Shown: positions 21,719 to 29,420 of the stretch, one piece after another
Layout: every line of letters starts with the position of its first letter
Numbering within the stretch: the first letter of the stretch is position 1
Assembly: GCA_965214705.1 (NCBI GenBank)
Contig: OZ243972.1
Coordinates: 768,001 to 832,000, forward strand
From: Alphaproteobacteria bacterium
GTDB lineage: Bacteria; Pseudomonadota; Alphaproteobacteria; UBA828
Direction: 5' to 3'
DNA length: 64,000 bases
Program-made: the position numbers and the translations under genes
Notes under the pieces: model-generated
What the model was told of the DNA's origin: nothing
Database searches by the model: none
What the model saw: the letters and a program-made list of their open reading frames with translations, nothing else

Positions 21719-22114
21719 ATGAAGGGCATCATCCTCGCCGGGGGCGACGGCACGCGGCTCTTCCCGATCACCAGTGTGGTCAGCAAGCAGCTCCTGCCCG
21801 TTTACGACAAGCCGATGATCTACTACCCCCTCAGCGTCCTGATGCTGGCGGGAATCCGAGACATCCTGGTGATCACGACGCCACAGCAGAGCCGAAACTT
21901 CCGAGACTTGCTGGGCGACGGCAATCAATGGGGCCTTGCGCTGCGTCATGCCGTGCAGCCGAGCCCCGACGGGCTCGCTCAAGCCTTCCTCATCGGCAAG
22001 GCCTTCATCGGGGACGATACCTGTGCCCTCGCACTCGGCGACAATATCTTTTACGGCTACGGATTGGGGAGGATGCTTCGCCGCGCGGCCTACCGGCAAA
22101 AGGGCGCTACGGTT
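21719..22114 (+). pseudogene. rmlA: Glucose-1-phosphate thymidylyltransferase, 5' fragment
   Basis: [18 protein letters not shown]...[16 protein letters not shown]; breaks at GATV at the element boundary. Confidence 0.93.
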
Positions 22115-22344
22115 TGAACGAAGCCGCTACGCGGAGTTAGCGGCGTAGAGTTCATTCATTTCCGAGGCGTCGCGGGTGCCGTTTGTTCTGTGCGTTCGCT
22201 TCCCGGTTGCGTCAGTGGCGCTCCGCCCGTCGGGTGGCGGATCCCCAGCAGCCTCCCGATCACCAGTGGTTAGCATCGACCCCTGCGACGGACCGTCGCC
22301 GGATCGGTCCGGCGGCGCGCCGTCGCGATCCAGGGAGATCGATA

Positions 22345-23223
22345 ATGACCGGGACCGCGTGCGACACGAACACCGTCACCCCTCTTCGCCAGCGCATGGA
22401 GGAGCAGCTCCGCATCGCCAATCTGGCCGCGAGCACGTCCAAGGCCTACATCTGCGAGATCAAGAACCTGGCCAGGTACTACGACGCCTCGCCGGACGAG
22501 CTCGACGCCGAGCAGGTGCGCCAGTGGTACCTGGGGCGGATCGACAAGGGGCTCAGTCCGGGCACGACCAACGTCTCCTTCGCCGCGCTGAACTTCCTCT
22601 ACATCGACACACTCGGCTGGCCTGACCATGTCGCCGGCCTGCGCTCCCGCAAGAAGCCCGGCAAGCTGCCGCGCTACATGTCGGAGCAGGAGGTCGAGCA
22701 CCTCATCCTTGCGACACCCGACCTCCGCCACCGTGCTGCCATTGTCACCGGCTATGGCGGCGGGCTCCGCATCTCCGAGACCTTGGCCATCAAGGTCGGC
22801 GACATCCTGTCGGAGAAGAAGCTGCTGCACATCCCCTCCGGCAAAGGCGGCACCGAGAGAATGGCACCGTTGCCGGACATCGTCATCCACTACTTGCGCG
22901 TCTACTACAGGAACATCTGGCCGCGTCCGACGAGCTGGCTCTTCTACGGCGTCTCGCTCGACAGGCCCATCGCAACGGAGACCTTGCAGGCCGCCTTCAG
23001 GAGGGCGCGCGACATTGCCGAGCTCGACCGCAGCTACACCTTCCATTGCCTGCGCCATTCGGCGGCGACCCATCTCCTCGAGCGCGGCGGCGATATCGAG
23101 GTGATCCGGGACATGCTCGGCCATCGAAGCGCGAACACGACCCGTCACTACGCCCGCGTCACCGGCAAGATGTTCGAGGGCCTCGACCACCCGATCTCAG
23201 GCTTCGCAGCGTTGCGCAACTGA
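22345..23223 (+). CDS. Tyrosine recombinase/integrase
   Basis: GLRISE (R), GKGG (K), HCLRHSAATHLLE (HxxR), LGH, TTRHY (Y); RBS GGGAG. Confidence 0.93.
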   Translation: MTGTACDTNTVTPLRQRMEEQLRIANLAASTSKAYICEIKNLARYYDASPDELDAEQVRQWYLGRIDKGLSPGTTNVSFAALNFLYIDTLGWPDHVAGLRSRKKPGKLPRYMSEQEVEHLILATPDLRHRAAIVTGYGGGLRISETLAIKVGDILSEKKLLHIPSGKGGTERMAPLPDIVIHYLRVYYRNIWPRPTSWLFYGVSLDRPIATETLQAAFRRARDIAELDRSYTFHCLRHSAATHLLERGGDIEVIRDMLGHRSANTTRHYARVTGKMFEGLDHPISGFAALRN

Positions 23224-23485
23224 CGGCGCGTGGAGGCCGAACGCGCGGGCGTGGCGGAGATCTTCCGCCGCGCCGGCGCCGCTTTCCGTGAGCGCCACAA
23301 AGGGCGCATCGACGCCGCCCGGCTCAAGGTCATGGGCGCCATCGAGGCGTGCCGCACCGCCGTGCTCGGCGGCCACATGTACGCCTGCGAGGGCTGCGGG
23401 CGCGAGCAATCGCGGTAGGGAAGCGGGTTGCCCCGCTCCCCCCGCGCAGATCCGGACGTGCCCGCTAAGGCATCCGGCTCCTCCC

Positions 23486-26514: not shown

Positions 26515-28854
26515 GGTCCTTACTCACTCATCGCTGTCTCTCGCCGACCACCTCTGCCAACCGCCTTCCCCGGCCCACACGGCCGCCGCTCGCGCGGTCA
26601 CCCGGCTTTCGCCGGGCTTCAGGTACTATTCGGTTGTCCGATTGCTCGCCGCGCATCCTTTCCCATTTCGCCTTTCGGCTTATAGGGTCCGTTATCCCGG
26701 TGCCACCCGGGAACGCGGCGAGCCCTCCTGGGGTCACGTCCAGATCTTCCGTACCGTGCCGCTCGCAAACACCTTGGTGCGACGGGTGGGTAAGAACGCC
26801 TTCGCCGCCATAGTGCCGGCTCGACCTTGCCCCGTCTTTGGCCGACCGATTCATCATGGGGTGGCCCCCTCGATTACGGCCCGGTACTTCTCCGCAAGCC
26901 CTTCAGATTCCACCTCGCGGTGGACACCCTGCCTTCCGGTTGTCTTTCGACAGTGGACCAACTTAGCTCCTCCCTTGGCTGTCTCCGCCGTTTCCGGCTT
27001 CGTGCCCGTTTAGAGTTTCGCTTATCGGCTCACTCCGGCCAGTGAGGAATTACCCCCACTTTTGGATATGGCGCCCCTTACCCGAGCGCCAGTGGGACTT
27101 GAACCCACCTGATCTGGGCGCTGCCCAGCACACACTATGGCCGAGTCTGATTTCTCCATGTCGTTCATCTTCGGTTACGGACTCCTCCTTTCCTCAGCGT
27201 TCCCGCCACGACTCAGCGGGATGACATGGAGACCTCCCAGGTCCCGGTGCAGTGCGTACGTACGTGCGTGGGTTCTCTGACACCGCGGGATTCAGACCCC
27301 CCTCGCCATATCGGTGGGCCAGATGCGACCTTCGGCCAACGAAAGAGCCTCGGCATCCCGGATGATGTTTCTTTCGGTGCTCAATAGCCCCGCCCACACG
27401 CGCCCCTGTCAACGCTTGACCCTCGCCCTCGCGAGCGACGGCCCATGACTCGGGGTGGAAGTGGTGGCTCACCTTCTCCTTCCTGTTGGACTTTCACCAA
27501 CTGCACTCGCACCAGTTCGCCTGGCGCACTCCGCTCTTCAACTCCTGCCGCAACCGCCACTGCCCCACCTGCCAGGGTCTCGCCGCCAACCTCTGGAGCG
27601 AGGAGCGCGCCGGGGACATCCTGCCGGTGCCCTACTTCCATGTGGTCTTCACCCTGCCCAAGGAGGTTGCCGCCATTGCCTTCTGCAACCGCAGGGTGGT
27701 GTTCGACATCCTCTTCCGGGCCGTCGCCGAGACCCTGCGCACCATCGCCGCCGATCCCCGCCACGGCGGCATGCGCATCGGCGGCACCGCGGTCCTCCAT
27801 ACCTGGGATCAGAAGCTCCGCTTCCACCCGCACCTGCACGTGGTCGTGCCCAACGCGGGCTTCGACGTAGACAGTGGCGAGTGGAAGACGGGGAGCACCA
27901 CCTTCCTCGCCCCCGTCAAGGTCCTCGGCAGCCTGTTCCGCCGCCTCTTCCTCGAGGAGCTCGCCCGCGCCCACGGCCGGGGGGACCTGGAGTTCCACGG
28001 CACCCTCGCCCACCTCGCCAATCCCGGCGAGTTCCACGCCACGCTTGCCGCCGCCCGGGCCAGGGACTGGGTGGTCTACGCCAAGCGGCCCTTCCGCGGG
28101 CCTGAGCAGGTCTTCCGGTACCTCTCGCACTACACGCACAGGATCGCCATCTCCGACAGCCGCATCGTCTCCTTCGACGGCGAGACGGTCTCCTTCCGCC
28201 ACCGAAAGCCCAAGGCGCCGGGGCAGAGAAAGCCGCGCTACGGCATCGCCACCGTGAGCGCCGACGAGTTCATCCGCCGCTTCCTGAGGCACGTCCTGCC
28301 GGACGGCATGCACCGCATTCGCTACTTCGGCATCCTCGCCAACGGCTGCCGCGCCAGCACGCTGGAGAGAGCACGCCAGGCTCTCGGCGCCCTCGGCTGC
28401 GCCGCCCCCGAGGGAAGCGTGGACGGCGCTCGGGCCGAGCCCGACGAAGAGCCCGAGATCGGCACCGCGCCCGTGGCCTGCCCCCACTGCGGCGGCGTCA
28501 TGCGCCTCGTCCGCGAAATCCGCCGCCGCCATGAGCCCCGCTCGACGCGCGGCCCGCCGGCGCTGCCGCCGACCCACAGGGGGAAACCGTGAGACGCCCG
28601 CTCGCTTCGGCCCCGCGCAACGGCGCCAAAGCGCCGACGCACGACCGAACCTGTCTCCGCTTGAGCCGGGCTGACAGCCCTCGGCTCACACCCCGCTCAG
28701 TCCTCGCAGCGTGCGCCCGCATGCCTGCCGAAAGACCGGCGCGAGCGTCGATTTTATGCGCAACTCTGCTGCCGGTGGATGCCGCCTGACGCTGACATCA
28801 GCGCACTTTCCACATAGCTCAACTTCGCCTCTCGTGGCCCGCGGCTTCGTTCAA

Positions 28855-28896
28855 AAGGGTTGGGCAGGCTCTCGAGAGAGAGCCTGCCCAACCCTT
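28855..28896. repeat. Perfect 19-bp stem with GAGA loop at the right end of the IS91-like element
   Basis: AAGGGTTGGGCAGGCTCTC-GAGA-GAGAGCCTGCCCAACCCTT. Confidence 0.9.
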
Positions 28897-28901
28897 AACC
28901 T

Positions 28902-29420
28902 TTCGCGTACCCGGTTCGCGATCCGGAGCGTTACGGCGTCGTCGCCTTCGACGCGAGTGGCCGCGCGACCGCCATCGAGGAGAAGCCCCGGCAACCGCGC
29001 TCCCGATGGGCGGTTACGGGGCTCTATTTTTACGACAACGACGTCATCCGCATCGCCGAAGAGATCGAACCGAGCGCCCGCGGAGAATTGGAGATCACCG
29101 ACGTCAACCGGCGCTATCTCGATCGCGGCGACTTGCGAGTCGAGCAGTTGGGCCGAGGATTCACCTGGTTCGACACCGGGACGCACGACAGCCTGGTGGA
29201 GGCTTCGAGCTTCGTCCACACCATCGGGAAGCGCCAGAACCAGTGCATCGGCGTTCCGGAGGAGATCGCATACCAAAACGGCTGGATCGACCATACGGAG
29301 CTCGCCGCGCTCGGACATCGTCTGCGCCGGAGCAGCTACGGCCAACACCTGTTGCGGCTTGCCGGCGAGCTCGACGGGAGCGATGCCGCTGTCCCAGAGC
29401 CGTATTCCAACGCTCGATGA
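28902..29420 (+). pseudogene. rmlA: Glucose-1-phosphate thymidylyltransferase, 3' fragment
   Basis: FAYPVRDPERYGVV...IEEKP...AVTGLYFYDN...SARGELEITDVN...WFDTGTHDSL. Confidence 0.93.

Follow-up and report, generated by a model that had tools for sequence, protein, structure and literature searches.

When an insertion sequence (IS) encodes both an IS91-type HUH transposase and a tyrosine recombinase, which of the two enzymes pastes it into its target? This question is raised by a stretch of 64,000 nucleotides, referred to below as the window, from an Alphaproteobacteria bacterium (GTDB lineage UBA828; assembly GCA_965214705.1). The window covers positions 768001–832000 of contig OZ243972.1 (C1) in a genome of 7.9 Mb, three contigs, and 67% G+C. 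Direct reading of the sequence locates an rfbA-like nucleotidyltransferase gene that is split at 22114–28900 by a mobile element, which is one non-autonomous copy of a 2,666-bp IS91-family IS with a tyrosine-recombinase gene upstream of its transposase gene. A sequence-only reading of this locus had proposed a hybrid mechanism, in which the HUH protein makes or replicates a circle and the recombinase integrates it through a 2-nt core. The explanation that we favour, giving it about an even chance, is that the HUH enzyme transposes the element in the IS91 manner and that the recombinase plays an accessory part at the junction.

Copies of the element and the insertion rule

The split gene fixes the ends of the window copy, as had been argued from the sequence alone, since its Pfam NTP_transferase profile continues over the insertion (positions 1–129 on the left and 136–243 on the right). 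The left junction reads ...ACGGT|TTGAACGAAGCCGC, with TT at 22114–22115 and GAAC starting at 22116, and the bottom strand of this tip reads ...CGTTCAA up to the junction. Genome-wide, 100 left and 94 right ends were found, which form 88 pairs. Exactly 2,664 bp separate GAAC from AACC in 60 of these pairs, and the intron-free unit including TT is 2,666 bp. The left flanks are unique in 99 of the 100 cases, and TT precedes GAAC in 96–98 of these 99.

Many copies lie inside other repeats, and therefore empty paralogous sites exist. At 100% or at least 99% identity (13 cases), the empty site contains one TT, while the filled sites exhibit TT on both sides. Such empty and filled sites coexist, indicating that the element is copied and not excised. 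Furthermore, the site of one copy (L005) is bridged in the contigs of three of four other public runs by a skip of 2,666 bp with the ends TT..CC, and the L005 insertion is therefore polymorphic. The genome as a whole is crowded with repeats, and some insertion sites of the IS have dozens of identical empty paralogues, with many dozens for one of them.

The dinucleotides at the left and right junctions were compared for 87 unique copies. TT was found on both sides in 68 of them, in agreement with the earlier remark that only TT is shared. Another 15 carry TT on the left and a different dinucleotide on the right (AT in 8, CT in 4, and GA in 3), and the opposite arrangement occurs twice; the last two copies read AT/AT and TA/CT. 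The asymmetry of 15 versus 2 has a binomial p of 0.0023. Where the empty site has diverged to CT or AT (p1, p37, and p47, with paralogs 81–97% identical to the flanks), TT stands at the left junction of the filled copy, and CT or AT is retained at the right one. From this split and these empty sites, it follows that the left TT belongs to the element and travels with it, and that the right dinucleotide is that of the target. Such a pattern marks the insertion of a single defined strand end and not a duplication, and a 2-nt recombinase core, as the sequence-only reading took the TT to be, is not needed to account for it.

The target resembles the left tip of the element. T occupies position +1 in 69 and position +2 in 80 of the 85 unique right flanks, whose logo TTGnnCG (G 45, C 61, and G 49 of 85) is similar to the tip TTGAACG, and 76 of the 99 left flanks have C or T immediately in front of the insertion. 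The target word is hence YTTGnnCG on the top strand, or CGnnCAA on the bottom strand. An orientation bias relative to replication would have pointed to a single-stranded target at the fork. The orientation of the element matched the sign of the local GC skew in 49 copies and was opposite in 51; the cumulative skew is weak and irregular in all three contigs, and is too weak to place an origin in this genome.

Three other descriptions of the flanks were rejected. Hairpin-shaped targets do not apply in this genome, as complementarity of the flanks around TT amounted to 206 matches versus 158–195 in shifted controls. The left-flank logo does not fit a guide-type pairing between this flank and the bases that follow the right repeat arm. 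Right flanks without TT were also considered as one-ended read-through; in 8 unique-flank cases, corresponding to 9 of the 88 pairs, they proved to be a separate IS of 2,096 bp inserted in the CTTAACC tip, mostly with TT restored behind it. The right flanks that are shared among copies, 9 in number, are those of this second IS. It has the ends CGAACTTCC / GGAAGTTCG and one long open reading frame (ORF), duplicates about CTTAAnC, and occurs at least 15 times; examples of it lie at C3:1555947–1558046 and C2:60100–62199.

Ends, enzymes, and relatives of the element

The features of the window copy and its host gene are as follows.

21719–22113, plus strand: 5′ part of the rfbA-like (glucose-1-phosphate nucleotidyltransferase) gene, NTP_transferase profile 1–129, in ORF 21662–22117
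22114–22127, plus strand: left tip, ter-like end and left arm of the inverted repeat, TT plus GAACGAAGCCGC, identical in 100 copies and conserved in relatives
22123–22144, plus strand: small subterminal palindrome of the left end, GCCGCTA / TAGCGGC, from the fold and the pattern in relatives
22345–23223, plus strand: tyrosine recombinase gene (Pfam Phage_integrase and Phage_int_SAM_4), 292 aa from ATG, in an ORF that opens at TTG 22183
23230–23408, plus strand: 5′ part of the IS91-family transposase gene, first half of the zinc-binding domain (Pfam Zn_Tnp_IS91 profile 1–48)
23409–27529, minus strand: group II intron DNA of 4,121 bp within the transposase gene (Pfam RVT_1/GIIM; Rfam)
27530–28592, plus strand: 3′ part of the transposase gene, HUH motif and two catalytic tyrosines (Pfam Y2_Tnp, and Zn_Tnp_IS91 profile 50–90)
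28841–28854, plus strand: subterminal right arm of the inverted repeat, GCGGCTTCGTTCAA, the exact inverse of the left tip, read directly from the sequence
28855–28896, no strand assigned: perfect 19-bp hairpin with the loop GAGA (28874–28877), ori-like end, from the fold and covariation
28897–28900, plus strand: 4-nt tail AACC, the final bases of the element, from the sequence and from the joint in contigs of other runs that skips 2,666 bp with TT..CC
28901–28902, plus strand: target TT outside the element, from the single TT at empty paralogous sites; the bases found here vary among copies
28902–29420, plus strand: 3′ part of the rfbA-like gene, NTP_transferase profile 136–243

The right arm of the repeat is placed 46 nt inside the right end. 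The sequence-only reading described an inverted repeat of 15 bp followed by the GAGA hairpin and AACC, and this order stands; the inverse GCGGCTTCGTTCAA(A) indeed spans 28841–28854(55), but the 15th base, T22113, is flank in the window copy, so that the element owns 14 nt of the repeat. The right-end hairpin folds with −26.3 kcal/mol (z of −8.5; 0 of 200 shuffles as good), and the fold of the left palindrome is weak alone (z of −0.9 and −2.0). In relatives, this palindrome appears by eye as NCCGC-N3–4-GCGGN′ with matching changes on its two sides (GCCGC/GCGGC, ACCGC/GCGGT, and CCCGC/GCGGG).

Both genes of the element agree with the two-gene description given earlier. An intact transposase gene of 413 aa was found in copy L005 (2626–3867), and its product scores 382.5 bits against the NCBIfam model NF033538 transpos_IS91, for which the cut-off is 125, identifying it as an IS91-family equivalog. 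It contains the motifs HPHLH and YLSHY, namely HUH and the two tyrosines of a Y2 enzyme, and is only 22–28% identical to enterobacterial IS91-family transposases. The recombinase falls below all NCBIfam cut-offs; its nearest models are XerA, XerC, and integron integrase, and its nearest Protein Data Bank entries are XerC-like 4a8e, XerD 1a0p, and IntI4 2a3v. The integron integrase models gave 130 bits for TIGR02249 against a cut-off of 265, and 74.6 for PRK15417 against 435; the latter was matched in two stretches with the middle missing, where the IntI-specific insert is absent. The recombinase is of the simple Xer/IntI-like type without the IntI insert. Its residues R-K-H-R-H-Y are present in the window copy, with the candidate catalytic tyrosine in the motif RHYAR, and by this measure it is catalytically intact. 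No DDE domain was detected by Pfam among the proteins of the element.

Relatives were collected by a scan of one genome per species, which gave 79 loci with transposases 46–78% identical to that of the element. They span Alpha- and Betaproteobacteria, Gemmatimonadales, Verrucomicrobiia, Phycisphaera, Bryobacterales, and Fimbriimonas. In 75 of the 79, the transposase gene is immediately preceded by a gene for a recombinase homologue; among the other four, L045 and L063 have less than 200 bp upstream, L077 has 509 bp, and L041 is a truncated copy. HUH and both tyrosines of the transposase are kept in 78–79 of 79 relatives, and the six recombinase residues in 72–74 of 75. The same two-gene layout was found in a Flavobacteriia plasmid copy at 38% identity, and the labels of the Prokaryotic Genome Annotation Pipeline read “tyrosine-type recombinase/integrase” and then “IS91 family transposase” on Mesorhizobium and Arenibacter plasmids. 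Recombinase and IS91 transposase thus form a module that is conserved across several phyla.

The ends are conserved as well. The inverse of a relative's own 14-nt tip (up to 3 mismatches) was found downstream of the transposase in 48 of the 55 relatives for which both flanks are available, versus about 1.7 expected by chance from our own arithmetic. Together with the 100 left and 94 right ends in this genome, this indicates that the arrangement of repeat and hairpin is not a chance one. The hairpin after the repeat varies in sequence by subgroup with its pairing kept: in seven short-hairpin sequences, 7 of the 14 pairs changed on both sides, giving a covariation score of 0.361 versus 0.143 in shuffles (0 of 500 as high) and 0.04–0.13 with the partners slid. 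It stands at the very tip in all subgroups without a T run after it, and is followed by tails such as CTTAACC, CTTAAGA, CTCMAGA, CTCAACA, and others. The comparison of homologues that was suggested earlier hence found the arrangement kept. The linkage of the tip to a subterminal repeat and a covarying hairpin is a clade-wide feature, absent from the canonical IS91 copy tested (described below).

Several loci exhibit variations of this plan. The tip is ACAACGAA in place of TGAACGAA in L026, L054, L091, and L095, which are from different genomes, and these tips follow a similar flank (...TGAGCATGCCCRGCAC), as if there were a common conserved target or an adjoining element. In the Bradyrhizobium-type loci L064, L070, L071, L073, L084, and L094, the sites GGA|TT|CC(C)GAATC form small palindromes when examined by eye, and the inverted repeat reaches 3 nt into the flank after insertion. 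A second related recombinase/IS91 family is also present in a few copies in the studied genome, with four right ends, a different hairpin, and the tail CCCTAAAGATT, similar to locus L017.

The sole head-to-tail dimer (L097; joint at C2:646500–646720, L096) carries a modified joint. Its junction AACC-TT-GAAC has turned into a perfect 78-nt palindrome, in which AACC has gained a facing GGTT and the loop reads TCTC, the inverse of GAGA, and which folds with approximately −52 kcal/mol on both strands. The extra GGTT occurs in 1 of 1 tandem joints versus 0 of the 85 other right ends. This gain fits a pairing of the repeat arms in vivo, and template switching in a folded quasi-palindrome would be expected to yield such a joint. 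The hairpin loop is also polymorphic in a flip/flop manner: of 86 right ends, 79 carry GAGA and 7 carry its inverse, TCTC. The recombinase was considered as the source of this loop inversion and rejected, as the distance is too short for synapsis; template switching in the quasi-palindrome offers a simpler account, which covers the extra GGTT of the dimer as well.

The transposase gene of the window copy is broken by group II introns. Two reverse-transcriptase ORFs (23486–24697 and 25174–26514) lie on the opposite strand, with an Rfam match to group-II-D1D4-6 at 27271–27494 and one to Intron_gpII (domain V–VI) at 23409–23482 that, at 36.1 bits, is below the gathering score. Repeat blocks were found at 23410–25242, 25243–25410, and 25410–27529, and two group II intron units stand back to back on the minus strand (23410–25242 and 25243–27529); the second reverse-transcriptase ORF runs on into non-coding sequence. 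As the introns are oriented away from the transposase gene, the window copy cannot make transposase. Longer copies of the IS are present elsewhere in the genome, namely ten of approximately 4,314 bp, two of 4,828 bp, and three of 7,074 bp.

Candidate mechanisms of insertion

In the favoured IS91-type reading, the HUH/Y2 transposase would peel off the bottom strand, starting at the right end and finishing at the left tip, and the peeled strand would be closed into a single-stranded circle. Below the hairpin, the two repeat arms would pair in this circle, so that the cut site would stand in a 4-nt bulge. The transposase would then insert the strand after a target word that mimics the tip (CGnnCAA on the bottom strand, YTTGnnCG on the top strand), and nothing would be duplicated upon insertion, the left TT coming from the element and the right TT from the target. 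The recombinase would be an accessory enzyme on the circle or on a tandem junction, not the integrase of record. On the bottom strand, the order target ...CGnnCAA | right end ... left tip ...CGTTCAA | has the geometry of IS91, and the IS91 rule thus predicts the shared TT. The absence of duplication and the tip-like target are at least compatible with the standard IS91 rules that the sequence-only reading had set against its own proposal.

Several observations weigh against this reading. An enzyme whose residues are kept in 72–74 of 75 relatives, and whose gene precedes that of the transposase in 75 of 79 loci across several phyla, must have some DNA that it cuts and joins, for which this reading offers no candidate. 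The repeat between the two ends has no counterpart in the canonical IS91 copy tested, so it may be tied to the recombinase, and the bottom-strand junction GTTCAA|G fits the integron rule RYYYAA|C (PMC5027507). The target word (N)CAA and the tip word GTTCAA of the element differ from the IS91-family words GTTC, CTTG, and CTCG. Some copies cannot be reconciled with one exact cut: p4 and p23 are flanked by TT on each side, and their empty sites read TC or GT; the junction of p70 is shifted by at least 1 nt, p71 and p76 have 1–2 extra T at the right junction, and one copy reads AT/AT. One-ended transposition, which occurs at 1–14% in IS91 and IS1294 according to PMC13181058, was not seen among approximately 88 copies, which as genomic survivors are no frequency assay. 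Finally, the back-joint of a circle was not reported in the contigs of the public runs, which are silent on rare circles.

The strongest competitor, which we hold only tentatively, divides the labour between the two enzymes. The HUH protein would make the bottom-strand single-stranded circle, and an integron-like recombinase would integrate its folded junction, in which the repeat arms form one duplex box and the hairpin a second, with an unpaired spacer between them as in attC. The cut would fall after GTTCAA, one strand would be exchanged with a double-stranded target after (N)CAA, and replication would resolve the product. This is consistent with a recombinase of Xer/IntI-like simple type with conserved catalytic residues, and with the placement of IS91 recombinases in the integron-like subgroup by Smyshlyaev et al. 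(bioRxiv 10.1101/542381). GTTCAA and TTGAAC fit RYYYAA and TTRRRY, and the cut falls at the integron position, directly after AA on the bottom strand (PMC5027507); a cut just 3′ of the 5′ arm has, by our own reasoning, the usual polarity of tyrosine recombinases. The inter-end repeat is moreover present in the 48 of 55 recombinase-bearing relatives and absent from the recombinase-less IS91 copy tested, and one-strand insertion would explain the 15:2 asymmetry equally well.

The evidence on the other side comes from both enzymes and from the site. IS91 TnpA inserts the single-stranded circle without a partner, and the transposase here has both tyrosines and qualifies as a full IS91 equivalog. 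The recombinase lacks the IntI-specific insert, and the integron models match below their cut-offs, one of them in two stretches. The base after AA is G instead of C, and the box spacing is 3 nt versus 7 nt in attC. The conservation of the target is short, one-sided, and of little dyad symmetry, and a slipped donor nick would account more easily than a site-specific exchange for the 1–2 extra T that some right junctions carry. The hybrid mechanism of the sequence-only reading is a possible one that is not needed for the TT. In its general form, recombinase-bearing IS91 elements would be hybrids of rolling-circle transposon and integron, with an attC-like circle junction pasted by an IntI-like recombinase into YTTG-type sites, or into attC sites in other lineages; this we put forward as a conjecture to be doubted sooner than believed. 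If it were true, read-through copying would offer a ready means of enclosing an adjacent gene in a circle closed by an attC-like joint, which would bear on the unsolved origin of integron cassettes.

An unlikely alternative assigns a rescue function to the recombinase, which would resolve or re-integrate tandems and double-stranded circles, the dead ends of IS91, with the transposase transposing normally. In favour of this, double-stranded circles of IS91 are not inserted by TnpA, according to PMC13181058. The recombinase is Xer-like, and only 1 tandem junction was found against 88 paired copies, a junction that has lost its bulge. On the other hand, inspection by eye, with no systematic search, revealed no two-arm site around a 6–8-bp spacer at the double-stranded junction, and one tandem is too few to argue from.

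A classical integrase element is very improbable. Here a double-stranded circle would recombine with the target by two staggered exchanges through a 2-bp overlap, and the HUH protein would only replicate the circle. TT on both sides in 68 of 87 copies, and the one copy with AT on both sides, are what this predicts. After two-strand exchange and replication, however, unlike overlaps should give both junction types equally, and the observed 15 versus 2 disfavours it. The overlap of tyrosine recombinases is usually 6–8 bp, and only TT, far below this length, is shared here.

A cut-and-paste element, with the arms as ordinary terminal inverted repeats, a 2-bp target duplication, and the hairpin as a transcription terminator, would accommodate the perfect 14-nt inverted repeat and the TT on both sides of most copies, but is refuted by the lack of a DDE transposase, by a right arm that lies 46 nt inside the end, by unequal flanks (in 15 copies the left side reads TT and the right side retains another dinucleotide, that of the target), and by a hairpin that has no following T run and stands at the very tip in all subgroups.

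Approximately one hundred near-identical copies, many of them with empty paralogous sites, make this genome an unusually clean record of insertion by a recombinase-bearing IS91 element. It covers the exact ends, the absence of duplication, the one-strand signature, and a target that mimics the ter tip. A vague database remark that some IS91 members have an integrase is thereby turned into a sharp question, namely which enzyme pastes the circle. If the recombinase does so, the link to integrons would be of interest to the mobile-DNA field; if not, the element is an ordinary, very successful IS.

Comparison with known systems

The nearest known relatives are the elements of the IS91 family. According to PMC13181058, this family makes no target duplication, uses a target tetranucleotide beside oriIS (CTTG, GTTC, or GTCC) and a cleavage word at terIS (CTCG or GTTC), and has subterminal palindromes at both ends. 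The same source describes that IS91 TnpA alone inserts the bottom-strand single-stranded circle, and that the upstream Orf121 of IS91 is an accessory protein sharpening ter recognition. GTTC is also contained in the inverted repeat of the present element, as the sequence-only reading pointed out, though it lies 2 nt off the junction. A canonical IS91 copy on an E. coli plasmid (L098, approximately 732–2566), bounded by comparison with other plasmids, has its ter and target words on the bottom strand in the same geometry as the element, and contains no repeat of at least 9 nt that links its left tip to its right end. That classical IS91 lacks an integrase and terminal repeats, as had been stated, is in agreement with this copy.

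The element is thus similar to IS91, IS801, IS1294, and IS1294b in its transposase family, in the subterminal palindromes at each end, and in the lack of target duplication. It is also similar in the ter-like end upstream and the ori-like end downstream of the transposase gene, and in its bottom-strand words, one for cleavage within the ter end and a target word resembling it next to the ori end; the ter and ori roles of its ends would follow from this likeness. It differs in the 292-aa tyrosine recombinase encoded upstream, where IS801 and IS1294 have nothing and IS91 has Orf121, and in the 14-nt repeat linking the left tip to the right end. In ISfinder, the IS91-family entries ISAzo26, ISMno23, ISSde12, ISShvi3, and ISWz1 presumably also have an upstream integrase-like ORF. 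The papers on ISWz1 and ISShvi3 give the IS name only. Recombinases “found in IS91 and IS3 transposons” were placed in the integron-like subgroup in the preprint by Smyshlyaev et al. (bioRxiv 10.1101/542381). Recombinases in IS91 elements have hence already been mentioned in print, and this branch is catalogued but unstudied; no paper was found on the ends, the target rule, or the recombinase role of recombinase-bearing IS91 elements, the texts of ISfinder and TnPedia lying outside the search.

Elements of the IS200/IS605 type have subterminal hairpins, a target word that is the cleavage word of one end, and a single-stranded circle (textbook knowledge; PMC5027513). The present element shares the hairpins and a target word like the cleavage word of one end, and would share the circle as an intermediate. 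It differs in that its transposase is a Y2 enzyme with a zinc domain instead of Y1, and in that it is copied and not excised.

Integron recombination of attC with attI offers the other comparison. Its sites consist of the boxes RYYYAAC / GTTRRRY, with the crossover between AA and C on the bottom strand (PMC5027507). GTTCAA|G and TTGAAC of the element each fit 6 of the 7 consensus positions, and the inner pair GTTGGGC / GCCCAAC fits fully, although the spacings differ. A recombinase that is Xer/IntI-like, a single strand folded into two duplex boxes around an unpaired spacer, a cut after RYYYAA on the bottom strand, and a one-strand insertion that would be resolved by replication are the features that the element may have in common with integrons. 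The differences are that its recombinase has no IntI insert, that the base after AA is G, that the box spacings are unlike, and that the place of the “cassette” is taken by an IS encoding an HUH transposase. Neither a cassette array nor attI came to light at these coordinates, though no search aimed at them was made. The element is a new and very successful member of the catalogued but unstudied recombinase-bearing branch of the IS91 family.

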